Assembly: GCA_018675975.1 (NCBI GenBank) | Contig: JABGXB010000003.1 | Span: forward strand, 267,821 to 331,820 | Direction: 5' to 3' | Origin: Candidatus Woesearchaeota archaeon | GTDB lineage: Archaea > Nanobdellota > Nanobdellia > Woesearchaeales > JABGXB01 | DNA length: 64,000 nucleotides | Shown here: piece by piece, positions 118 to 63,048 of the stretch | Numbering within the stretch: position 1 is the stretch's first letter | Layout: each line of letters starts with the position of its first letter | Made by a program: the position numbers and the translations under genes | Notes under the pieces: model-generated | Databases searched by the model: none | What the model was told of the DNA's origin: nothing | The model's input: only the letters and a program-made list of their open reading frames with translations

Positions 118-345
118 ATGATTACAATAGAAGAAATTAAAAATAAATTAGAAAACAGTATGCCTAATGCAATAATTGAAATAAGTAACCCACAAGAAGA
201 TGGAAGACATTTTTTTGCAAAAATAATATGGGATGAATTTGAAAACAAAACATTAGTTGAGCAACATCAATTTGTTTATGAAATTTTAAAAGAAGAAATG
301 AAAGAACAAATACACGCATTAGGATTGGACACTAAATCAAAATAA
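118..345 (+). CDS. bolA: BolA-like protein
   Basis: The 75 aa ORF has a BolA-type C-terminal pattern (HFFAKIIW...LVEQHQFVYEIL...IHALGLDT). It sits directly upstream of a monothiol glutaredoxin, the classic BolA partner. Confidence 0.7.
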   Translation: MITIEEIKNKLENSMPNAIIEISNPQEDGRHFFAKIIWDEFENKTLVEQHQFVYEILKEEMKEQIHALGLDTKSK

Positions 346-357
346 AAGGTTAAAAAA

Positions 358-666
358 ATGGATGAACAAGTTAAAACAAAAATTGAAGAATTAATTAAAT
401 CTAAAAAAGTATTTTTATTTATGAAAGGAACACCTGAAGAACCAGACTGTGGATTTTCAGCAAGAGTAATAGAAGTATTAAATCATTTTAATATAGAGTA
501 TTTAAGTTTTGATATATTAGAAAATGAAGAAATTAGACAAGGAATAAAAGAATATTCAAATTGGCCAACAATCCCACAATTATACATTGATGGAAAGTTT
601 GTAGGCGGTTGTGATATTATTGAAGAAATGGCAAGAAGTGGAGAATTATCTAAACTATTAAATTAA
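358..666 (+). CDS. grxD: Monothiol glutaredoxin (Grx4/GrxD family)
   Basis: CGFS active-site motif (PDCGFS), WPTIPQLYIDGKFVGGCDI glutathione-binding region, and about 100 aa in size. Confidence 0.9.
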   Translation: MDEQVKTKIEELIKSKKVFLFMKGTPEEPDCGFSARVIEVLNHFNIEYLSFDILENEEIRQGIKEYSNWPTIPQLYIDGKFVGGCDIIEEMARSGELSKLLN

Positions 667-715: not shown

Positions 716-1189
716 ATGGATATTCTTTGGAAAAACTTATTTAAAAAAAGAAACAATAATTCAATTAGTACAATTATAAAAAATGTCGATTTATTTAATG
801 AATTATCAAAAAAACAAATAAAAGAAATAATTAATTTAGGTCATGTTAGAAACTATAAAGAAAATGAAATCATATTTAATAAAAATGAACAAAGTTTTGG
901 AATGTTTATCATATTAAAAGGTCAAGTTGAGATTTATATAAATAAAAATAATAAAAAACAAATAATTGACAATTATAAACAATCAGAATATTTTGGAGAA
1001 ATCTCATTAATTGATAAAAATATAAGAAAAGTAAATGCAATAGCAAAAAAAGAAACAAAATTGTTTTATGTTTTTGGAGAAGATTTTAAAGAACTATTAA
1101 ACAAAAATAAAGATATTTCAATATTATTCTATAAAAATCTTACAAAAAATTTAATTGAAAAATTAAATTATCTGGAAAAATTATTATGA
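716..1189 (+). CDS. Stand-alone cyclic-nucleotide-binding (CNB/cNMP) domain protein
   Basis: CNB-domain pattern: LFNELSKKQIKEI, GMFIILKGQVEI, YFGEISLIDKNIRKVNAIA. Its stop overlaps the start of the next gene (ATGA). Confidence 0.7.
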   Translation: MDILWKNLFKKRNNNSISTIIKNVDLFNELSKKQIKEIINLGHVRNYKENEIIFNKNEQSFGMFIILKGQVEIYINKNNKKQIIDNYKQSEYFGEISLIDKNIRKVNAIAKKETKLFYVFGEDFKELLNKNKDISILFYKNLTKNLIEKLNYLEKLL

Positions 1190-2244
1190 ATCCTATAAAT
1201 TTAAATAAAAAAATATGGTTAAATTTATTTTTAATTTTAGTCTTTATAACAATATTAGGATATATTTTTTTTCAATTTATTTCAATATTTGGATATGTAT
1301 TAATAGGGGTAATATTAAGTTATATATTAAATCCAATTGTAAAAAAAGTTGAAGCATTAGGATTTTCTAAAAAACATGCATTTAGTATAATAATTACAAT
1401 AAGTTTAATATTCATAATTACTGCAATGACAATTGCAATTCCTTTAATAAATCAAGAAGTTAATTCTCTCTCTAATAAATGGCCAGAAATAAAATCCAAA
1501 ATTAATAATCAAATTCTAACTGAAAAAATAAATAATAAAAATGAATCTACATATTATTTTCCACTATTAAATATTGAAATTGCTAAAAGTAATATAGATG
1601 GATTTTTATTAGATTATTCTTCACAAATAAATATATTTGCAAAAAATTTAATTTCAGTAATATTTAAATTAATTTTAATAGTACCAATTGTAACATATTT
1701 TTTAATCATAAAAAGAAGAAAAATCAAAAAGAAAATATTTCAATTAATTCCAAATAAATATTTTGAAATTATTTTTGCAATGGTAAAAGAAATAAATAAA
1801 TCCATTGAAAATTATATTTCAGCAAAAATAATTCAAGCAGTTATAATTTCAGTTTCAGCTAGTATTGGTTTTATAATAATAAATTTAAATTTTCCAATAT
1901 TTTTAGGAATATTTGTAGGTCTTGCAAATATCATACCTTATATTGGACCATTAATTGGAGCTATACCAGCAATACTTATTGCATATTTATTTTTTGATAC
2001 AAAAATAATTATATTTGTCTTAATTTTATTATTAATCGTACAATTAATTGACAATTTTATAATTCAACCAATAATATTACCAAAATTAGTTAATGAACAT
2101 CCAATTGTAGTTATAGTTATTACATTAATTGGAGCAGAATTATTTGGCCCATTAGGGATGATTATGGCATTGCCAATTTTTATAATAATTAAAATAATAT
2201 TATTAAAAAGTTATATTGCTCTAGACTTCTTATATTCTAAATAA
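1186..2244 (+). CDS. AI-2E family transporter (PerM/UPF0118-like membrane protein)
   Basis: A 352 aa polytopic membrane protein with the typical AI-2E layout and the motif ANIIPYIGPLIGAIPA...DNFIIQPIILPK. Confidence 0.8.
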   Translation: MNPINLNKKIWLNLFLILVFITILGYIFFQFISIFGYVLIGVILSYILNPIVKKVEALGFSKKHAFSIIITISLIFIITAMTIAIPLINQEVNSLSNKWPEIKSKINNQILTEKINNKNESTYYFPLLNIEIAKSNIDGFLLDYSSQINIFAKNLISVIFKLILIVPIVTYFLIIKRRKIKKKIFQLIPNKYFEIIFAMVKEINKSIENYISAKIIQAVIISVSASIGFIIINLNFPIFLGIFVGLANIIPYIGPLIGAIPAILIAYLFFDTKIIIFVLILLLIVQLIDNFIIQPIILPKLVNEHPIVVIVITLIGAELFGPLGMIMALPIFIIIKIILLKSYIALDFLYSK

Positions 2245-2273
2245 TAAATTAAAAGTACTTGATTAAATAAAAA

Positions 2274-2283
2274 CTTATAAATA
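2274..2283 (+). promoter_or_regulatory. Candidate TATA box (cttataaata) for the inserted small ORF
   Basis: Consensus-like TATA word about 20-25 nt upstream of the ATG at 2304. Confidence 0.4.
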
Positions 2284-2303
2284 ATTTAACAATTAATTTT
2301 TAT

Positions 2304-2582
2304 ATGGGAGATAAATGGTATAATTCAGGCATTTCAAATTATATAAGTCAAGGCGTAGCATATTCTTTAATATTTGGAACTCTAATATTAGGAGGCGGTT
2401 CTTGTTACAGACAAAATGTAATTGCAGAAGCCGAGGCTGAAAGAATTAAAAGTGGAAGTTATATTATCCGTCAGGGTGACTTTAATAAAAACGGTAAAAG
2501 AGAAGAATTTATTGAAATAAGAAATAAAAAGTTTTTCTCAATGATTGATGGAATAGATTTAGAATCAAAATTAAAAGAATAA
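2304..2582 (+). CDS. Hypothetical small membrane-anchored protein (cassette between duplicated AI-2E 3' ends)
   Basis: The 92 aa ORF has one hydrophobic segment (VAYSLIFGTLILGGG) and its own TATA-like element. I recognise no family. Confidence 0.4.
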   Translation: MGDKWYNSGISNYISQGVAYSLIFGTLILGGGSCYRQNVIAEAEAERIKSGSYIIRQGDFNKNGKREEFIEIRNKKFFSMIDGIDLESKLKE

Positions 2583-2597
2583 AACTTTTAATTTTAC

Positions 2598-2671
2598 TGC
2601 CAATTTTTATAATAATTAAAATCATACTATTAAAAAGTTATATCGCCCTAGACTTCTTATATTCTAAATAA
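2598..2671 (+). pseudogene. Orphan duplicate of the last 24 codons plus stop of the AI-2E gene
   Basis: The 74 bp at 2598-2671 match 2171-2244 with 4 mismatches. All four are synonymous in the AI-2E frame (both read LPIFIIIKIILLKSYIALDFLYSK-stop). There is no upstream coding continuation. Confidence 0.8.
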
Positions 2672-2744
2672 AAAAATATTATTTTTTAATTGCTTCAAAA
2701 CTAATATCACATGGTTGTTCAAATCTATTAATTAAATAGGGATA

Positions 2745-3734
2745 CTATTCATCTAATGATTCAACATCAGAAATACGTTCAGTTTCTAAAAAAATACTAT
2801 GCTTATCTTTACCATATTTACCATAAAAACCTTTAGTATTTTTTATGAGTTCAAATGACATTGGGTCTGCATCATTTACTTTATTTTCCTTAAAAAACAC
2901 ATTTTTTTTATCTTTAGCAAAAAAACCACCCACAACTTGAAATGTTTCACTATCTGCTTCCGAAATTAAATTCGAATAACTATAAACATGATTTTTATCT
3001 TTTGCATACCCATATTCTAAAACTTCAAAAGTTTTTATATCTGCATTTGACAATATGTTATCATAATGATAAATTCCAAAATATTTTTTATTAAACCCTT
3101 CTGAAAGTTCAATACCAAAACTAAAATTTATATTTAAAAAATATATCACTATAAATAAAATAGTTAATCCAAAAATTATTTTTTTAATATTTTTTTCTTT
3201 AATTAAGATTTCACCTAGATTTTTGATAAAAAAAGATGATATTGCATTTGCAATTATAAATATAAGTAAAATAAAAATAGGTCCAAGAACAAGTATTATA
3301 GGTCCAAGAACAAACATTAAAGCACCAAGATTAATTAATGAAAGTTTAATTAATCTTTCAATTATCGTATTTTGAAAATAAATAGATAATATCATGGCCA
3401 TAATCATTATAAATAAAAAAAATATCATTACCCTAGAAAAAAATAATTTCAAAGATGTTTTGATTTTTTTTTTTTCATCAAAAGGAACATCTTGTAATCT
3501 ATATGCTTGGTATATACTAACAAAGATAATAATAAAAAATGCAATTCCAACAACTAAATTATGTAAACCCGCTTCATAAGGAGTTCCAAAAAAAGTCCCA
3601 TATAATAAATCAAAAAAAACAATAATAACTACAATTATTAATCCAACAATTAATCCTTGTGAAAAAATATTTAAATTTTTAAAATATATCAAATTAGAAT
3701 TTTTTTGTAATTTAGAATTATTAACTTGATCCAT
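2745..3734 (-). CDS. Membrane protein with C-terminal DKNYY-type repeats
   Basis: The N-terminal half has multiple TM segments. The C-terminal part repeats YAKDKNHVYSY / FAKDKKNVFF / YGKDKHSIFL, resembling the DKNYY family. Confidence 0.6.
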   Translation of the reverse strand: MDQVNNSKLQKNSNLIYFKNLNIFSQGLIVGLIIVVIIVFFDLLYGTFFGTPYEAGLHNLVVGIAFFIIIFVSIYQAYRLQDVPFDEKKKIKTSLKLFFSRVMIFFLFIMIMAMILSIYFQNTIIERLIKLSLINLGALMFVLGPIILVLGPIFILLIFIIANAISSFFIKNLGEILIKEKNIKKIIFGLTILFIVIYFLNINFSFGIELSEGFNKKYFGIYHYDNILSNADIKTFEVLEYGYAKDKNHVYSYSNLISEADSETFQVVGGFFAKDKKNVFFKENKVNDADPMSFELIKNTKGFYGKYGKDKHSIFLETERISDVESLDE

Positions 3735-3923
3735 AATATTAAAAACTAAATTAGATTATATAAAGCTAATCAAAAAAAATAGAGTATCACCCACAATAAT
3801 TAATAAATGGTTATTTTTTTTATGAATTCTTTTTAATTTTTTATTATTAAATAAATTACTATAAAAAGAAATATTGTTGATAAAATAAACCCACAATTAA
3901 ATAATCTGTTTTACAAATATTAA

Positions 3924-4442
3924 TTATAAATTATTAATTGGAACCTCTAATATGATGAGTTCTAATTTTTTATTCTCCGGTTGAGAATTTTTTCTATTAA
4001 AATGTACTAGAGTTTTCTTATTCGTAGTTTCTCGAAATCCCATTTTTTTAAAATAATTTAATGAAACTTCATTCCTAGAAGAAATTTGCTCATATATAGC
4101 CTTTAAATTTGAATATTTATTTTTTAAGTCATTAACAATTAAATCAATTACTTTTTTAGAAATACCTTTGTTTTGGTGTTCTGGTAATAAGCCATGAAAT
4201 CTAATCCCTGCGTTTTCAGTATCATCGATTTTAAACAAATAGTAACCCGTTATACCTATTACCTCGTGATTGTCTCTAATAAAATAATTCATACCATTTT
4301 TTTCTTTTATCCAAGTATCAAAAGATGCCTCAATATCTACATAATATTCTGGCTCAAAAATTTGTTTTGCTACATCCATATATTTATGTCTATTGCCAGA
4401 ATTAATCTCCTCGATATTAATTTTCATAATCTTATAATTCAA
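3924..4442 (-). CDS. GNAT family N-acetyltransferase
   Basis: Acetyl-CoA binding motif region HGLLPEHQNKGISKKVIDLIVNDL, followed by the C-terminal YFKKMGF pattern. Confidence 0.7.
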   Translation of the reverse strand: MNYKIMKINIEEINSGNRHKYMDVAKQIFEPEYYVDIEASFDTWIKEKNGMNYFIRDNHEVIGITGYYLFKIDDTENAGIRFHGLLPEHQNKGISKKVIDLIVNDLKNKYSNLKAIYEQISSRNEVSLNYFKKMGFRETTNKKTLVHFNRKNSQPENKKLELIILEVPINNL

Positions 4443-4558
4443 TATATTCTTATAAACATTAGCATAAATAAATAGACCTTCATTTATTGCTTTTTCTCCT
4501 TTTTAGAATTTAAATTTATCTATTATCTAAAACGAAAAATAAATAATTCTTGAAAAGC

Positions 4559-4568
4559 CTTATAAATA
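4559..4568 (+). promoter_or_regulatory. Candidate TATA box (cttataaata) for the HTH-suf operon
   Basis: Consensus-like TATA word about 20-25 nt upstream of the ATG at 4589. Confidence 0.4.
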
Positions 4569-4588
4569 ATAAGTAAACTATAGTTAAC

Positions 4589-4969
4589 ATGGAGCTATTA
4601 TTACCACAAGAAGTAGAAGTACATTATATTATTCCAACTATTAGAAAATATTTTGCACATTATTTAAATCAAAATGGAATGAACCAAACTGAAATTTCTA
4701 AAATTTTTGGAATTACAAAATCTGCAGTATCACAATATTTTAGTAAAAAACGTGGAAATAAAATTACATTTCAAAAAGATTTTGTAAAAGAAATAGAAAT
4801 TGCAACAAAACAAATCACAGATAAATATACTTTTATGTATCAAATGCAAAAATTATTATTAAAATTGAAAAATGATTATTCAATTTGTACAATTCATGAA
4901 CAAATTAATCCAAATTTAAATAATTGTAATCCAGAATTGGTTGGATGCCACTTTAGAAAAACAAAATGA
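4589..4969 (+). CDS. HTH transcriptional regulator with C-terminal Cys/His cluster, translationally coupled to sufB
   Basis: HTH segment NQTEISKIFGITKSAVSQYFSKKRG. The C-terminus reads CTIHEQINPNLNNCNPELVGCH (3 Cys plus His). Its stop overlaps the sufB start (ATGA). Confidence 0.65.
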   Translation: MELLLPQEVEVHYIIPTIRKYFAHYLNQNGMNQTEISKIFGITKSAVSQYFSKKRGNKITFQKDFVKEIEIATKQITDKYTFMYQMQKLLLKLKNDYSICTIHEQINPNLNNCNPELVGCHFRKTK

Positions 4970-9694: not shown

Positions 9695-9873
9695 ACAAAT
9701 GTAGTGGTTAAATTTCAAATTTATGTTTAATTATTTAAACTGTCGTTGGTTAAATCAATAAATGTAGTGGTTAAAAATAAAATATATTTTTTATTAATGT
9801 AATTATCGTTAAATAAAGAAGTAAATATAGAAATTAAAAGAATATTTGAATCATCATAAATTTATATAATAAA

Positions 9874-9948
9874 TAGCGGAGGAAGGATTTGAACCTTCGA
9901 CCTTCGGGTTATGAGCCCGATGAGCACTCCAGACTGCTCCACCCCGCT
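9874..9948 (-). tRNA. Initiator tRNA-Met (CAT)
   Basis: The reverse complement folds as a 75 nt cloverleaf: acceptor AGCGGGG/CTCCGCT with A1:U72, anticodon loop CTCATAA flanked by three consecutive G:C pairs, and T-loop TTCAAAT. These are archaeal initiator hallmarks. Confidence 0.9.
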
Positions 9949-10148
9949 ATAATTCTCAGACTTATTAACTATTTATAAAGATTTCTTTGATATTATTTTT
10001 TTTCTATTAAATAATATTCATTCATATTAAAAGATTAAACTCCACACATAAAAAGATTTCAATAAAACAAAATAGAATTGAAAAGTTTTCAATTACATTG
10101 AAATGTTTTTTAACAAGTTTATTTTAAACTAAATGTGTATATGAATTT

Positions 10149-33604: not shown

Positions 33605-36600
33605 ATGGAACAAAGTATTGAAACAAAACGAACTGGTATAAAAGTTAAAAAAGTTTTTTGTAGTGATAATATAAGCCCATTTGAAACTGTTGAATTTGAA
33701 AACAGATCAAGTGTGATAAAAAATAGAGATGGTTCTATATTATTTGAAATAAATAATATTCATGCTCCAAAAAAATGGTCGCAAGTTGCCGTAGATATAA
33801 TGGCACAAAAATATTTTAGAAAAAGTGGAGTTCCACAATATGATGAAAATCAAAATGAAATTAAAGATGAATTTTCAAATATAATTACAGGTTCAGAAAC
33901 AGATATTACTCAACCAATAAAAAGATTAACTGGATGTTGGAGACATTGGGGAGAAAAATATAATTATTTTGATACGCAACAAGATGCAATTAATTTTGAA
34001 CAAGAAATACAATATATGTTATTACATCAAATCGCTGCACCAAATAGTCCACAATGGTTTAATACGGGACTTAAATGGGCATATAATATTTCTGGAAGTG
34101 CACAAGGACATTATTATGCTGAACATGAAACAGGTGAAATTAAATTATCTGAGGATGCATATTCAAGACCTCAACCGCATGCATGTGCGGATTATTATAC
34201 ACAAGTGTATACTGATAAGGGTACAATGTATATTGGAGATATAGTTGAAAATAATTTAACTAATATAAAAGTATTTGATGGAGAAAAATATGTAAAAGTT
34301 CTTGCAATCAAAAACAATGGAAAAAAAGAAGTGTTTAAAATTCAATTAAAAAATGGAAATTATATTAAATTAACTCAAGATCATTTAGTGCTATCATCAC
34401 AAAAAAGAAAAAAAAATGGTGGAAATTATAACTGGAATTATGTAAAAGATGTAAAATTAGGTCACAAATTACAACAACCATTAATTCTAGATATTAAAGA
34501 AAAAAATGTATTTAGTGATGATTTAGCAAAAGCAAGATTAGCCGGTTGGATAGTTGGAGACGGATCAGTTGGAATTTATGAAAATGTAATGAGATTGGAA
34601 ATTATTTCTATTAAAGAAGAAGAATTTGAATCAATAATAAATGATATTCAAGAAGTATTTGGACAAGAAGTTAATTTTTGGATTAGTAAATTTAAAACAA
34701 AAAACGAAAATTTAGATGGTAAAAGAATTCATTTAGCAGGTAAAAAAATACATAAATTAATTGAAGACTATGATTTACTAAAATCTTCATTTAATGCAGA
34801 AGTACCTCAAAAAATAATTAATGGGTCACCACAAGAAAAAAGAGAATTTTTAAAAGCCTTATTTCAAGCAGATGGTTGTGTCAGAATTAGAAAAGATGAA
34901 AATAGAAATTCAGGAGATGTGTGTTTAACTACAATTTCAGAAAATCTTTCATTTGGAGTTTTACAATTATTAAATTCATTAGGTATTTATTGTAGAATTA
35001 ATAAATATAGTGATAAAAGAGAAAATCGAAAAGATGTTAATCAAGTTATAGTATCTTATGGTAGTGCAAGAGAACAATTTCAAGAACAAATTTCTTTTAT
35101 ATGTTCTCAAAAAACCGAAAAATTAGAATTATTAAATAAAATTATAACAAAATCAAAAACACTTCCATTAATAAGAGAAGAAACAATTATTTCAATTGAA
35201 TCTGAAGGCATTAAAGATGTTTATGATATTCAAACAGAATCTTCAAAATTTCTTGGAAATGGAATTGTAATACATAATTGTTTTATTCAATCAGTTAAAG
35301 ATGATTTAGTTAATCAAGGTGGAATATTTGACCTTTGTACAAGAGAGGCAAGAATATTTAAATATGGTTCTGGAACTGGTTCAAATTTTTCACAATTAAG
35401 AGGTCAGTCTGAAAAATTATCAGGTGGTGGAAGATCTTCAGGTATGATGTCATTTTTAAAAATATTTGATGTGGCAGCTGGAGCAATTAAATCAGGTGGT
35501 ACAACAAGACGTGCAGCAAAAATGGTTTGTCTTGATTTGGATCATCCAGAAATTATTGAATTTATTGATTGGAAAGCAAATGAAGAAAAAAAAGTTGCTA
35601 ATTTAATTACTGGTTCAAAAAATTCAAAATATCATTTACAAAAAATATTAAAAGAAGCAAGTTCAAATTCAAATATAGAAAAAAATCCAAAATTAAAATC
35701 AGCAATTAAAGAAGCTATTGAACAAAATATTTCTTTAAATTATATTGATAGAGTTTTAAAACTTGCAAATCAAGGAATAACTGAATTTGAAACTCCCGAG
35801 TTTGATAATCATTTTGAAGGTGAAGCATATTCTACAGTTAGTGGACAAAATTCAAATAATTCAATAAGAATACCAAATTCATTTTATGAAGCTGTTCATA
35901 AAGACTTAGATTGGAATTTAAAAAATAGAACTGATGGAAAAATTTCAAAAACTGTAAGAGCAAAATGGCTTTATGATAAAATTGGACAAGCTGCTTGGGC
36001 TTGTGCAGATCCTGGTGTTCAATTTGATACGACAATTAATGAATGGCATACATGTCCAAAAGATGGAAGAATTAATGCAAGTAATCCTTGTTCTGAATAT
36101 ATGTTTTTAGATGATACTGCATGTAATTTAGCTAGTATTAATTTAATTCATTTTATTAATGATAGTGGACATTTTAATGAAGAAAAATTTGCTCATGCAT
36201 GTGAACTTATGACAATTGTTTTGGAAATTTCAGTTACTATGGCTCAATTTCCAAGTGATGAAATTGCAAAAAGAAGTTGGGAATATAGAACATTAGGTTT
36301 AGGTTTTGCAAATTTAGGGACATTACTCATGGTTAAAGGAATTTCTTATGATAGTGATGAAGCTAGAAGTATAGCTGGAGGAATTAGTGCCATAATGTGT
36401 GGAACTGCTTATGAAACATCTGCTAAACTCGCAAAACATCTAGGACCTTTTAACAGATATGAACATAATAAAGATGACATGTTAAGAGTTATTAGAAATC
36501 ATAGACGTGCTGCATATAATGTTTCAAATGAAGAGTATGAAAAATTAGAAATTACTCCAGTTGGCATTGATGAAAATTTATGTCCAAATAATATTTTACA

Positions 36601-38146
36601 AAAAGCTAGAAATTCATGGGATAATGCACTTGAACTTGGACAAGAATATGGATTTAGAAATGCACAAGTAACTGTTATTGCACCAACCGGAACTATTGGA
36701 CTTTTAATGGATTGTGATACTACAGGAGTTGAGCCAGACTTTGCAATTGTTAAATATAAAAAACTTGCAGGCGGTGGTTATTTTAAAATTGTAAATCATT
36801 CAGTTATTAAAGCATTGAGAACTTTAGGTTATGAAAAAGATCAAATTATTGATATTAAAAAATATTGTATAGGTCATCAAACATTAGTGGGTTGTCCAAC
36901 CATAAATCATAAAATTTTAAAAGATAAAGGATTTGATGAAGAAAAATTAGAACTTATTGAAAAACAATTAGAAACTGCATTTGATTTGAGTTTTGTTATG
37001 AATAAAAATATTTTAAGTGAAGAATTTTTAAAAAAATTAGGATTTAGTGATGAACAATTAAATTCTGAAATGTTTGATTTACTAGAAGAATTAAAATTTA
37101 CAAAAGAACAAGTTGATATTGCAAATGAATATGTTTTTGGAACAATGACAGTTGAAGATGCTCCATACTTATTAGAAGAACATTATTCAGTTTTTGATTG
37201 TGCAAATAAATGTGGAAAAAAAGGTAATAGATATATTGACACTTATGGACATATTAATATGATGGCAGCAGTTCAACCTTTTATTTCTGGTGCAATTAGT
37301 AAAACAATTAATATGGATTCAGAAGTTAGTGTTAAAGATATTTTAGATGCTTATGAAGCTAGTTGGAAATTAATGCTTAAAGCAAATGCATTATATAGAG
37401 ATGGATGTAAATTAAGTCAACCATTAAATACTGCTGTTTTTGAAAGTGAATACAATTTAAATTTATCTGAAGAAGATATTGATGAAACAGTTGATTCAGC
37501 AGCAATTCAACAACAAATTCAAACAATGAAAGCAAATCAGTTGCCGAGAAAAAGAGGTGGTTTTGTTCAAGAAGCAACTGTTGCAGGTCACAAAATATAT
37601 TTAAGAACTGGTGAATATAATGACGGAAAATTAGGTGAAATTTTTATTGACATGTATAAGGAAGGTGCTGCCTTTAAAGCACTAATAAATTGTTTTGCAG
37701 TTGCAATAAGTAAATCTCTACAATTTGGTGTTCCTTTAGAAGAATTTGTTGAACAGTTTACATTTACTAGATTTGAACCGGCAGGTTTAGTAACTGGACA
37801 TGAATATATTAAAAATTCTACGTCAATATTAGATTATGTATTTCGTGTTCTAGGCTATGAATATTTAGGTAGAGATGATTTAATTCATGTAAAACCTAAA
37901 AGAAAACCACTAGACATTATAGAACATGAAGATGATCCAAGAGATAAACATAAAACACTAGATAGTTTTTCTAATAGAAAAAATGTAGAAGAGACTAGAA
38001 ACGAAATGCTTTTTAAAAAAATTAATACTGCCAAATCAAGAGGATATACTGGAGAAGCATGTGGTTCTTGTGGTAGTATGAGAGTAAAAAGAAATGGAAG
38101 TTGTACACTTTGTGAAGATTGTGGTTCTACTAGTGGTTGCAGTTAG
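33605..38146 (+). CDS. nrdJ: Class II (adenosylcobalamin-dependent) ribonucleotide reductase, interrupted in frame by one intein
   Basis: Blocks [24 protein letters not shown] active-site region, [27 protein letters not shown], and a C-terminal Cys-rich tail CGSCGS...CTLCEDCG. The protein is 1513 aa including the 365 aa intein. Confidence 0.9.
34184..35278 (+). mobile_element. Intein with LAGLIDADG homing-endonuclease domain inside nrdJ
   Basis: It begins with Cys (PQPHA|CADYY) and ends with HN followed by Cys (GIVIHN|CFIQSV). The two LAGLIDADG blocks are [11 protein letters not shown] (34538-34570) and [11 protein letters not shown] (34850-34882). Removing the insert restores the conserved HACFIQSV extein sequence. 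Confidence 0.85.
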
Positions 38147-60387: not shown

Positions 60388-61878
60388 ATAAGGATCAGCT
60401 AATTTTAAAAAATTATTAATTTGATTTAATTTAATGTTTGTATATGAATATACTCTAAATAGAATTTCATTTTTTTTAACTTTATCATTTTGTTTTTTTA
60501 ATAAATAAACACCACATCCTTTATGACTTGGAGCTCCAGCCATTTTTGCAATTTTACTTATAATTTTATTATCAATTTGTTTTACAATACCAGATTTATT
60601 TGATTTAACTTCATATATACATTTTGATAATTTATTTTTTAAATTATTAGTGCCATTTATTTTTTTCCCACCTTGTGCCACAATTATTTCATTAAATTTA
60701 TCAAATGCTTTATTAGAATATAAAATGTCACGAGCTACAATTTCACCTTGACCTTTTTTATATAAACCACCAAGCTCTAACATATTACCAGCTAATTTAA
60801 TACTTTTATCAATTAAATCTTTTAAATGATCATGTTGATTTTTTAATACATCATAAACATCGATTGCCTCTAAAACGGGACCCAAACCACAACCAATTGG
60901 ATTTTTTCCATCAGTTAAAACAGCATGAACATTTAGTCCAATTGAATGTCCTACTTTTTCAAAATCAGATTTTAATGAAAGTGCGTCTTTTTTTGAGCTT
61001 ATTTTAGAACCCATCCCATAAGGAATATCAATTAATACTTTATTACTACTAACACTTCTTTTTTTGGATAAAACTGAAGCTATTAATTGACCTCTTGGAT
61101 CTAAAGAAAGAGGATGTTCAACATTAATTATTATATCATCTGCAGGAGCTAAATCTAAAGCCCCACCCCATGTAATACATGCACCAGTTTTTTTTACAAC
61201 TTTTTTCATTTTAGAAATATCTAAATCTACATTAGTAAAAACTTCAAATGTATCTGCAGTACCAGCAGGAGATGTAATTGAACGTGAAGAAGTTTTAGGA
61301 ACTACATAACCTGCAACTGCTAATATTGGAACAACAATCATTGTAGTTCTATTTCCAGCAACACCACCTATACAATGCTTATCAATCACATTTTTAGAAC
61401 CAAATTTAATTATTTTACCAGTTTCAACCATGGATTTAGTTAATGCAATTGTTTCATCTAAATTTAAAGGATTACAATAACAAGCACTAACAAAATATGT
61501 AATTTCAACTTCAGTTAATATATTGTCTTTTATATCATTAATAATTTTTGTAAATTGATCTTTATTTAATCTTTCACCTTGTAATTTCTTTTTAATATAA
61601 TTTAATGTAATAGGTTCATTAATGTGAAATAATCTAACAATATCATTATGTTTTAAATTTAATTTTTCTCTTACTTCATCTAATACACCAACTTGGCCAT
61701 TTTTTAAAAAATCCGAATCAATTATATCAACCATAGCAATAAGTTCTTTTTTATTAAATCTAATACCCATTCTACTTTTTGGAGGAATATTTAATTTTGC
61801 ACAATCATATTTAGTTAAATATACTACTAAAGGACCACCAGTTTTAATTTTAATTTTTTTTATTTTAAAGTACATCAT
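60376..61878 (-). CDS. deoA: AMP phosphorylase (archaeal thymidine-phosphorylase family, DeoA-type)
   Basis: A ~500 aa protein with the extra N-terminal domain and the motifs IDKHCIGGVAGNRTT and PKTSSRSITSPAGTADTFE. Confidence 0.85.
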   Translation of the reverse strand: MMYFKIKKIKIKTGGPLVVYLTKYDCAKLNIPPKSRMGIRFNKKELIAMVDIIDSDFLKNGQVGVLDEVREKLNLKHNDIVRLFHINEPITLNYIKKKLQGERLNKDQFTKIINDIKDNILTEVEITYFVSACYCNPLNLDETIALTKSMVETGKIIKFGSKNVIDKHCIGGVAGNRTTMIVVPILAVAGYVVPKTSSRSITSPAGTADTFEVFTNVDLDISKMKKVVKKTGACITWGGALDLAPADDIIINVEHPLSLDPRGQLIASVLSKKRSVSSNKVLIDIPYGMGSKISSKKDALSLKSDFEKVGHSIGLNVHAVLTDGKNPIGCGLGPVLEAIDVYDVLKNQHDHLKDLIDKSIKLAGNMLELGGLYKKGQGEIVARDILYSNKAFDKFNEIIVAQGGKKINGTNNLKNKLSKCIYEVKSNKSGIVKQIDNKIISKIAKMAGAPSHKGCGVYLLKKQNDKVKKNEILFRVYSYTNIKLNQINNFLKLADPYSFK

Positions 61879-62942
61879 TTTCCATTTGCTTTATTCATTT
61901 TAAAATAAATTTTCATTAAGTTATAGGTAATAATTACAATAAACGGACCTATTATCAAACCACTTAGTCCAAAAATTGAAAGACCACCTAATACACCTAA
62001 AATAATAAAGTATACATCAATTAAAACTAAGTTTGCCATTACTTTTGGTTTTATTATATTATCAATAGAACCAACAATAACACCACCTATGAAAATAATG
62101 ATTGCATCTGAAAAATATGGAATTCCTGTTGACATACCAAATAAAACTTTAAAAATTAAAAGTGGCATCCAAATAAGACCCGTACCCAAAAAAGGAATTG
62201 ATCCTAAAAGACCAGTTAAAATACCAAACACTATGGGGTATTCTATATTTGCTAAATAATAAGCAAAACCTGCAATAATTGCCTGTATAAATGCAGTTAA
62301 TAAAAATCCAAATGTAAAACCTTTTAATAAATTATGAAATTCCTTAAACAAGTTTTTAGTATCTTTTGAATTTAATGGACTCAATTTACATATTGCCTTA
62401 TAAATTTCTAATTTTTTTGATAAAAAATACCACATTGATAAAAATGTTAAAAATAAAAATAACATTAAATCTGGAAGTAATAATATAAATTTTGAAAATA
62501 TATTAAATGAATTTTCTAAAAATCCTGAACCACTTTTATTTTTTGAATTAAATATATCAGACAAATACCTTTGTGCAGTAATATCATCTCTTAAAGCATC
62601 AAATTTAATAACAATATCACATAAAAAATCTCCTTCACAAGTTGTTATTTCCCCTCTAGCATATTTTTGAATTGTATTAATTGAATTATCAATTTTAAAA
62701 AAAAATGATTGTGTAATAAAATAAATTATTAATAATATAATAAAAATTGTTAAAAATGTAATAAATGCAGATCTATAATCTTTATCTTTAATGAAAGTAA
62801 ATCTATCTTGAAGTGGACTAAAAATAAAAGTTAAAAATGCACCAAAAACTATAGCAGCTAAAAAACTTGAAAATAGCCAAATTGAAAGAACTAAAAATAC
62901 AATCAAAAGTAAATTTACAGATTTTTTTCTATCGATATTCAC
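61875..62942 (-). CDS. AI-2E family transporter (second paralog)
   Basis: A polytopic membrane protein with the motif LLGSIPFLGTGLIWMP...DNIIKPKVMA. It uses a GTG start 12 nt downstream of the tRNA-Val 3' end, and its stop overlaps the deoA start. Confidence 0.8.
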   Translation of the reverse strand: MNIDRKKSVNLLLIVFLVLSIWLFSSFLAAIVFGAFLTFIFSPLQDRFTFIKDKDYRSAFITFLTIFIILLIIYFITQSFFFKIDNSINTIQKYARGEITTCEGDFLCDIVIKFDALRDDITAQRYLSDIFNSKNKSGSGFLENSFNIFSKFILLLPDLMLFLFLTFLSMWYFLSKKLEIYKAICKLSPLNSKDTKNLFKEFHNLLKGFTFGFLLTAFIQAIIAGFAYYLANIEYPIVFGILTGLLGSIPFLGTGLIWMPLLIFKVLFGMSTGIPYFSDAIIIFIGGVIVGSIDNIIKPKVMANLVLIDVYFIILGVLGGLSIFGLSGLIIGPFIVIITYNLMKIYFKMNKANGK

Positions 62943-62954
62943 ACCTCTTTCAAC

Positions 62955-63026
62955 ATGGACCTAGCCGGGATCGAACCGGCGATCTTTACTAAGTCAAAGT
63001 AACGTCATACCACTAGACCATAGGTC
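62955..63026 (-). tRNA. tRNA-Val (GAC)
   Basis: The reverse complement gives a 72 nt cloverleaf: acceptor GGACCTA/TAGGTCC, anticodon stem TTACT/AGTAA with loop TTGACTT, T-arm GCCGG-TTCGATC-CCGGC, and discriminator A. Position 37 is U, which is unusual. Confidence 0.85.
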
Positions 63027-63048
63027 CTTAATTATATTCTAATATATT

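Follow-up and report, generated by a model that had tools for sequence, protein, structure and literature searches.

A duplicated 3' end of an AI-2E transporter gene encloses a one-gene insert in a woesearchaeal genome and is best read as a recombinational insertion

In a genome of a Candidatus Woesearchaeota archaeon (assembly GCA_018675975.1), the 3' end of an intact gene for an AI-2E family transporter occurs twice, as direct repeats of 74 nt on either side of a 353-bp segment that holds one small gene encoding a 92-aa protein. The stretch of DNA analysed (contig JABGXB010000003.1, positions 267,821 to 331,820), hereafter the window, is 64,000 nt long. Recombinational insertion is the best reading of the locus, and silent-only divergence between the repeats together with codon composition suggests that the inserted DNA came from another lineage. 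Our leading account, which we put forward tentatively, is a single-crossover (Campbell-type) insertion of DNA that would have carried a diverged copy of the gene end as well as the 92-aa gene, with the downstream copy as the incoming one. Woesearchaeota are DPANN archaea, whose genomes are to our knowledge tiny and poor in recognisable mobile elements, for which genetic tools are lacking, and whose gene gain is poorly documented. The locus would offer a cleanly resolved, base-level example of a single accessory gene added behind an intact transporter operon by recombination at the gene's own 3' end.

The two repeat copies, termed copy 1 (upstream) and copy 2 (downstream), are identical at 70 of 74 positions, and their starts lie 427 nt apart. 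An earlier prediction made from the sequence alone had described this repeat, and its coordinates and its count of four mismatches proved exact. The mismatches, given as copy 1/copy 2, are 2196/2623 A>C, 2200/2627 T>C, 2217/2644 T>C and 2220/2647 T>C. In the AI-2E frame they correspond to ATA/ATC (Ile), TTA/CTA (Leu), ATT/ATC (Ile) and GCT/GCC (Ala), so that all four are silent, as had been claimed (P = 0.002-0.007 for 4/4 across several substitution models). All four sites carry C in copy 2, opposite A or T in copy 1. The base just left of the repeat also differs (T at 2170, C at 2597) and would likewise be silent if coding (TTG/CTG). A 25-mer common to both copies has no other site in the 64 kb (0 expected in shuffles), and the window holds no further repeat of comparable quality. 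Similarity between the copies ends abruptly at the left edge, which agrees with the earlier description. At the right edge it runs past the stop codon, with 22 in-register matches over the following 35 nt (63%; P ~4e-4 against random pairs, for a length picked after the fact), and beyond 35 nt identity falls to chance level, giving a homologous block of ~109 nt.

The coding tail and its flank have diverged to very different extents. The tail differs at 4/74 positions (5%) and the in-register flank at 13/35 (37%; Fisher P = 6e-5), while silent-site divergence within the tail (4 of 15.3 sites, dS ~0.32) equals that of the flank (P = 0.53). From the flank, a neutral copy 2 would be expected to show ~14 differences, and the probability of four or fewer is 0.002. 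Because tail and flank diverge so differently and the differences are silent only, the comparison argues that both tails belonged to functional genes and diverged under coding selection. A recent duplication that then decayed neutrally is hard to reconcile with the silent-only differences, with the contrast between tail and flank, or with the codon composition described below. The original prediction had already read the silent differences as coding selection on both copies, and the 5% versus 37% contrast supports it there; its corollary that the copies had resided in two genomes or elements is likely but not proven.

Today, copy 2 is non-coding, since it has no in-frame ATG, GTG or TTG. Its translation as a mini-ORF (open reading frame) or as a frameshift extension of the 92-aa protein was considered and rejected, as there is no in-frame start and a reading of the sequence found no slippery site. 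A second AI-2E paralogue in the window (61875-62942), which had been proposed as a place to look for the 74-bp sequence, was discarded as the source of copy 2: the two proteins share 29% identity, and at the DNA level the genes show no similarity and the paralogue has nothing in common with the repeat. The 353-bp insert is present once, with no further copy downstream, which is incompatible with simple tandem duplication.

Codon composition sets the two copies apart. Third-position C averages 3.3% over the 56 ORFs of the window, whose overall GC content is 23.4%. Copy 2 has five C-ending codons out of 25 (binomial P = 0.001), a count reached by only 0.10% of 25-codon windows and by none of the 56 ORF ends; copy 1, with 2/25, is host-like. 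The 92-aa ORF has the highest third-position C of all 56 ORFs (9.7%, P = 0.003). On this basis the 92-aa ORF and copy 2 look like one compositionally foreign piece, and copy 1 looks like part of the host. The polarity is probably the reverse of the textbook arrangement, with the downstream copy incoming and the upstream copy resident, and the donor was probably a less AT-biased relative. The original prediction had invoked integrative elements whose replacement copy lies upstream and leaves the displaced host end downstream; composition, although it draws on few sites, points the other way and probably reverses that assignment. Another compositional outlier is the nearby GNAT acetyltransferase gene, in a stretch that the nearest relative is without: its third-position GC is 21%, and it holds 13 of the 18 window-wide 25-codon stretches with at least five C-ending codons.

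The 92-aa ORF lies between the repeats as originally described, and its product has the predicted N-terminal hydrophobic membrane helix, followed by a small beta domain with an FG-GAP-like DxNxNG loop. At first it appeared to be an orphan, with itself as the sole hit of a word-based search and no Pfam match. An exhaustive HMMER search of 1.84e9 representatives overturned this and returned 14 small proteins of 84-112 aa that align over the full length at 32-48% identity. A profile search extended the family to ~20 clusters of archaeal-type proteins, none of them named. Members share a motif order of KWYNS, hydrophobic helix, Cys and DLNxNGxxEEFxEIxGxKYFSxIDGKNLE, and by this conservation the 92-aa ORF is a real gene of a small family. 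An AlphaFold2 model has a helix at residues 10-49 and strands at 55-81, with pLDDT of 80-91 in the C-terminal part and a three-stranded C-terminal domain; a fold search of this model against the PDB gave no significant neighbour, and the DxNxNG loop gave weak matches to repeats of FG-GAP proteins.

Genomes that carry homologues have 27-32% GC and place the gene in three unrelated contexts, none with a flanking duplication or repeats. The search for this ORF elsewhere, which had been suggested with plasmids and viruses in mind, yielded a family but no relatives in plasmid, phage or viral-contig collections. Two independent assemblies of one genome with a homologue both break 130-150 nt upstream of the homologue gene (L103 1-150 and L104 1-131), a shared break that may point to a repeat or to strain differences.

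At the ends of the insert is a perfect 11-nt inverted repeat (AAATTAAAAGT; P = 1.5e-4 to 9e-4 against genomic nulls), a feature expected of a terminal-inverted-repeat transposon or a miniature inverted-repeat transposable element. The surrounding duplication does not resemble the target-site duplication of such an element, as it comprises 74 nt plus ~35 nt of weaker similarity and carries silent-only differences, and the window has no second copy of the insert. An RNA gene in the GC-richer part of the insert was also considered and rejected, with no Rfam match and a fold z-score that was not significant.

The TATA-like box of the 92-aa ORF (AAAACTTATAAAT, 2270-2282) begins a second line of observations. 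This exact 13-mer occurs in the window only there and at 85-97, that is 21 nt before the ATG of the 92-aa ORF and 20 nt before that of the BolA gene. Among 57 upstream regions tested in the window, the best match to the region upstream of the 92-aa ORF is that of BolA. The likeness extends leftwards and shows that the AI-2E tail, with its flank and TATA box, is present a third time in decayed form, so that three units can be distinguished: unit A upstream of BolA, unit B (copy 1 and what follows it) and unit C (copy 2 and its flank). Unit A starts outside the window, at L001 4790. In a blastn comparison, 2172-2282 and -25 to 97 share 69.6% identity over 125 columns (E = 3e-7). The tail of unit A has 44/74 ungapped in-register matches, and the best of 200,000 random 74-mers of the window has 43; its right part scores 64 in alignment against a null maximum of 59. 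The consensus TATA box that the original prediction had assigned to the insert is therefore present, but it is part of a repeated unit that also stands before BolA rather than the insert's own. Conservation of the 92-aa promoter across genomes was not significant.

Units A and C begin at the same nucleotide, within 2 nt. Left of this boundary unit A bears no resemblance to AI-2E (P = 0.95) or to the sequence that precedes copy 2, and a left arm shared by units A and C was accordingly rejected. The boundary coincides with the dyad of a palindrome, TGGCA-T-TGCCA, which is the sole match in the 64 kb even when one mismatch is allowed. That units A and C share a boundary on a unique palindrome argues for a defined unit, as opposed to random breakpoints. 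Unit B appears mosaic: its tail is 95% identical to copy 2 and 55-59% identical to the BolA copy, and its flank and TATA box group with the BolA copy. The copy-1 unit looks like a hybrid joined at the stop codon, because its flank and TATA box resemble unit A more than they resemble the flank of copy 2; such a hybrid would be expected if a crossover took place at that point. An attempt to polarise the four differences with unit A as outgroup was abandoned, as the answer depended on the alignment. The nearest relative has no tail-like sequence upstream of BolA.

Two minor observations concern unit A. An annotated 197-aa ORF on the minus strand starts antisense to its decayed tail in the 58 nt before the window (L001 4758-4815), so that roughly the first nine codons of the ORF (26 nt) lie opposite the former AI-2E 3' end, unless the true start is further in. 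Upstream of the GNAT start, 4443-4497 (TATATTCTTATAAAC...TAAATAAATAGA...ATTTATTGCTTTTT) bears a loose likeness to the end of the unit A tail and its flank, but the alignment falls short of significance (P = 0.23). Were the likeness real, the unit would have left a fourth trace here, at the border of the DKNYY-GNAT block. Coordinates are collected in Table 1.

Table 1. Features of the AI-2E locus, in window coordinates.
Feature	Position	Strand	Remarks
Repeated unit (tail, flank and TATA box)			sequence TGCCAATTTTTATAATAATTAAAAT... plus TATA
Unit A, decayed third copy of AI-2E tail, flank and TATA box	26 nt before window to 97	+	ends 20 nt before BolA ATG (118)
BolA gene	118-345	+	
Glutaredoxin gene	358-666	+	
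cNMP-binding protein gene	716-1189	+	Pfam PF00027, E=5e-20; 4-nt overlap with AI-2E gene
AI-2E family transporter gene	1186-2244	+	intact, 352 aa; Pfam PF01594, E=1e-57
Palindrome TGGCA-T-TGCCA	2165-2175		dyad is the left boundary of the repeated unit
Copy 1 (unit B tail)	2171-2244	+	functional last 24 codons and stop of AI-2E gene
Flank and TATA box 3' of copy 1	2245-2282	+	homologous to 2672-2706 (63% in register), closer to BolA upstream region
Perfect 11-nt inverted repeat	2246-2256 and 2584-2594		ends of the 353-bp insert
92-aa ORF	2304-2582	+	between copy 1 and copy 2 of AI-2E tail
AU-only hairpin	2567-2595	+	11-bp stem, 7-nt loop; spans 92-aa ORF stop; ends 2 nt before copy 2
Copy 2 (unit C tail)	2598-2671	+	orphan last 24 codons and stop; non-coding
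Flank 3' of copy 2	2672-2706	+	22/35 in register with 2245-2279; decayed TATA-like AAAACTAATATCA
DKNYY-domain gene	2745-3734	-	Pfam match
GNAT acetyltransferase gene	3924-4442	-	Pfam match
HTH regulator gene	4589-4969	+	followed by SufB, SufD, SufS, SufC

In the single-crossover account, a small incoming DNA, which we infer to have been circular, would have carried the diverged, once-functional last 24 codons of an AI-2E gene, ~35 nt of 3' flank, the TATA box and the 92-aa gene. One crossover with the resident gene end would have sufficed. The exchange would fall within 2221 to ~2245, a 24-nt identical stretch around the stop codon; it is placed to the right of 2220 because the composition of copy 1 is host-like and that of copy 2 foreign. 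Both this position and the enzyme responsible, either host homologous recombination or a recombinase acting in trans, are inferred. The resident transporter would have kept its own tail as copy 1 with the protein unchanged, the TATA-driven gene for a small membrane protein would now stand behind it, and the incoming tail would be stranded downstream as copy 2, a non-coding orphan ahead of the original flank. The scatter of the cargo family over unrelated contexts also counts in favour of such an insertion.

Several points weigh against this account. The statistics rest on four substitutions, 25 codons and 35 flank bases, and several of the tests are post hoc. No donor has been sampled, all AI-2E homologues being at most 49% identical. 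Pfam searches matched no integrase, recombinase or transposase in any ORF of at least 90 aa in the 64 kb. No empty site or excision variant was seen in the sampled contigs, and the population was clonal in every sample. A circle of 427 bp is an unusual substrate for recombination. Finally, since there is a third copy, the unit has also been duplicated at this locus itself, so that in-situ mechanisms gain in prior probability, and the older unit upstream of BolA is left unexplained by a single crossover behind AI-2E. Of the originally proposed integration-type event, recombinational insertion stands as the best reading, and a dedicated integrative element was not identified, with no integrase or transposase found.

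An alternative that we regard as unlikely but serious is that a related woesearchaeon supplied chromosomal DNA through homology-facilitated illegitimate recombination, in which one end of the fragment pairs with a conserved neighbour and the other joins illegitimately. Divergence between orthologues would account for the tail/flank contrast and for the fact that all differences are silent, the nearest relative is missing all of 2245-4588, and no recombinase would be needed, consistent with none being found in the window. Two variants can be drawn. Copy 2 could be the left edge of an imported block (tail, flank, DKNYY and GNAT genes) anchored on HTH-SufB, with the 92-aa gene native; the GNAT gene is rich in third-position C like copy 2, a point in favour of this variant, but the extreme third-position C of the 92-aa ORF would then be unexplained. 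Alternatively, a fragment of AI-2E, flank and 92-aa gene could have been anchored upstream and have pushed the native tail downstream, as with the orphan ends of rhs genes and type VI secretion system (T6SS) effectors, which would make the C-rich copy 2 native, against host codon usage. In either case an illegitimate junction should fall at a random position, and yet copy 2 and the older unit A share their start on a unique palindrome. We also know of no demonstration of the process in archaea of this group, which counts against import. In bacteria, both homology-facilitated illegitimate recombination and orphaned 3' ends are documented (PMC5361080).

A purely local history, in which replication template switching or an unequal crossover involving unit A gave rise to the second tail on the spot and gene conversion then held copy 2 close to copy 1, has equally limited appeal. 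It finds its best argument in the third copy, proof of an earlier duplication of the unit within the locus. The mosaic would fit an unequal crossover between unit A and the gene end, as the flank and TATA box of copy 1 agree with unit A in ~90% of aligned columns (hand count), and no donor, element or recombinase was found that would speak for an outside source. The silent pattern and the C-richness would have to be due to chance. The former has P = 0.002-0.007, or ~0.01 under the most favourable AT-biased model, and gene conversion gives no enrichment of silent differences; the latter makes copy 2 a 0.1% outlier. The 353-bp insert, moreover, is not duplicated, and unequal crossover would have produced a second full operon, to be replaced precisely by a foreign-looking 92-aa gene.

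Less probable again is a classical site-specific integrative element of the e14 or phage 21-icd type, with crossover at the left boundary, copy 1 as the replacement and copy 2 as the displaced host end, since decayed to a remnant that has lost its integrase, like the cis-mobilizable elements discussed below. The geometry of an intact gene with a 3' remnant in direct repeat downstream is as such an element would leave it, the longest identity block (25 nt) lies at the left end, and a palindrome at the boundary would suit a recombinase core. The spacer of this palindrome, however, is 1 nt, unfit for the core of a tyrosine recombinase, and composition marks the downstream copy, not the upstream one, as foreign. 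No integrase is encoded next to the putative attachment (att) site or elsewhere in the 64 kb, and the insert holds the 92-aa gene alone. With 15 nt between the stop of this gene and copy 2, decay would have had to delete exactly up to the att site. Viral or plasmid relatives are lacking, and homologues of the cargo stand without flanking repeats.

We consider it improbable that the locus reflects a minimal non-autonomous gene-cassette system in DPANN archaea. The ~110-nt unit would serve as the attachment site, a recombinase of the host or one acting in trans would cut or exchange it at the TGGCA-T-TGCCA dyad, and single promoter-less genes, the 92-aa gene among them, would be slotted in behind an undamaged resident gene, the BolA unit being the trace of an earlier round. 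A further tail copy between the GNAT and HTH genes, as expected of an accretion array, was not found. The shared palindromic boundary and the older copy may reflect a sequence-specific process. If so, this would be a new and very small integration module and a possible handle for genetics in DPANN; if not, the locus is an instructive scar of homologous or illegitimate recombination.

An assembly artefact (a collapsed or chimeric repeat) can be set aside almost entirely, given an identical region in at least five assemblies from different pipelines and samples, a repeat shorter than typical reads and four mismatches that distinguish its copies. Over 1.4-8.6 kb, the whole structure recurs without a mismatch in two Logan and two ENA assemblies and in one JGI contig, which come from different samples, and proteins of NCBI metagenome-assembled genomes also match the locus. 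The two outcomes named beforehand as fatal to an insertion, a simple tandem duplication and an artefact, were thus not borne out. A sixth, low-coverage ENA contig has two differences, 2464 T>G (I54S in the 92-aa protein) and 2672 A>T, and the cluster representative P0001 carries an S50N variant of the 92-aa protein (position 2452). These three are the only variants among the sampled contigs; they lie inside the insert or just after copy 2, with the flanking 4-8 kb invariant, and could be sequencing errors or signs of relaxed constraint.

The locus shares elements with several known systems. Insertion of e14 in Escherichia coli icd leaves a 163-bp pseudo-icd (PMC6379469). As in e14 and phage 21, the 3' end of the gene is present twice as a direct repeat around an insert, the gene is intact and the two ends differ mainly in ways that conserve the protein. 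Unlike there, the insert is a 353-bp single-gene segment without an integrase, the host is a DPANN archaeon, the downstream copy seems to be the incoming one and an older third copy lies upstream of the operon. Cis-mobilizable elements (CIMEs) are remnants of integrative and conjugative or integrative and mobilizable elements that lie at gene 3' ends, for example those of fda or of tRNA genes. They are defined as att-flanked elements without integration genes (PMC5704250). A short segment between two att-like repeats of a gene 3' end, with no integration or transfer genes, answers to this permissive description; here, however, no related autonomous element was found in viral, plasmid and phage collections, the repeats are not a short core but reach ~109 nt, of which 74 nt are closely similar and ~35 nt less so, and the host is archaeal.

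Campbell-type single-crossover integration is known mostly from laboratory suicide vectors and plasmids. Insertion-duplication of this kind has the same layout of homology, insert and homology, with hybrid copies and a single-copy insert; a natural 427-bp circle and its origin are hypothetical in our case. Orphan ends of rhs, contact-dependent inhibition of growth (CDI) and T6SS genes (PMC5361080) likewise place 3' fragments downstream of a functional gene, with foreign DNA anchored on conserved sequence. They differ in that a toxin-immunity logic is missing from our locus, it is the conserved extreme 3' end and not a variable tip that is duplicated, and one orphan lies upstream of the operon. 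An integron cassette is similarly a one-gene unit placed by a recombination site, with the promoter belonging to the site (here the TATA box in the repeated unit) and not to the cassette. The resemblance ends there, with no IntI, no attC and no Rfam match, an 11-bp AU hairpin that is far too small, and a repeat that is a piece of the neighbouring gene. Overall, the locus would be a variant recombination scar, with the palindromic boundary, the older copy and the terminal inverted repeats as additional features; its lineage offers hardly any record of such events.

Comparison with relatives places the insert in a region that is a variable spot. The closest AI-2E homologues have 48-49% identity. 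All close homologues keep the pair of genes for the cyclic-nucleotide-binding (cNMP-binding) protein and AI-2E, each with a different downstream neighbour. The downstream region is considered variable because in the nearest relative (L090/L094, 48% amino acid identity) AI-2E is directly followed by the HTH (helix-turn-helix) regulator and SufB genes; the segment 2245-4588, comprising the 92-aa gene, copy 2 and the DKNYY and GNAT genes, is absent. None of the relatives compared has a duplicated AI-2E 3' end. The proposed search for an empty site thus turned up none, and only distant relatives were informative, the nearest being without the whole of 2245-4588. The shared 25-mer had no match in viral contigs and matched one further metagenome contig, which has the same structure. 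A profile scan of a genome collection for AI-2E gave homologues of 33% identity or less only, and exact-protein look-ups returned clonal copies only.

A 16-nt sequence, AACTATAGTTAACATG, which contains the palindrome GTTAAC..., overlaps the start of the HTH gene ahead of SufB (window 4571-4591). It is also present in the relative (L090 4468-4487 and L094 1656-1676) despite the 48% identity of AI-2E, and is probably the operator of the HTH regulator itself.

The transporter gene itself shows no sign of damage. Its PF01594 match covers residues 16-339 of 352, the C-terminal helix is intact, and the C-terminal tail ...LPIFIIIKIILLKSYIALDFLYSK is kept in homologues of 36-49% identity. The cNMP-binding/AI-2E pair (716-2244), with an overlap of 1-4 nt, is a conserved two-gene operon in a woesearchaeal clade (L090-L101) and suggests a cyclic-nucleotide-regulated transporter; BolA and glutaredoxin genes lie upstream of this operon in two lineages.

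Archaeal markers encoded in the window include NMD3, Spt5, Cdc48 and GatD/E; the longest contig of the archaeon measures 1.03 Mb. The only selfish element recognised in the 64 kb is an intein with a LAGLIDADG homing-endonuclease domain (Pfam Intein_splicing and LAGLIDADG_3), in a class II ribonucleotide reductase of 1513 aa (33605-38146, +). Between the Suf cluster and tRNA-Met (9873-9949), a 63-nt unit is present in two tandem copies of 73% identity (9697-9822). The second AI-2E paralogue is encoded on the minus strand, and its start codon (62942) lies 14 nt from a tRNA-Val gene (62956-63027).

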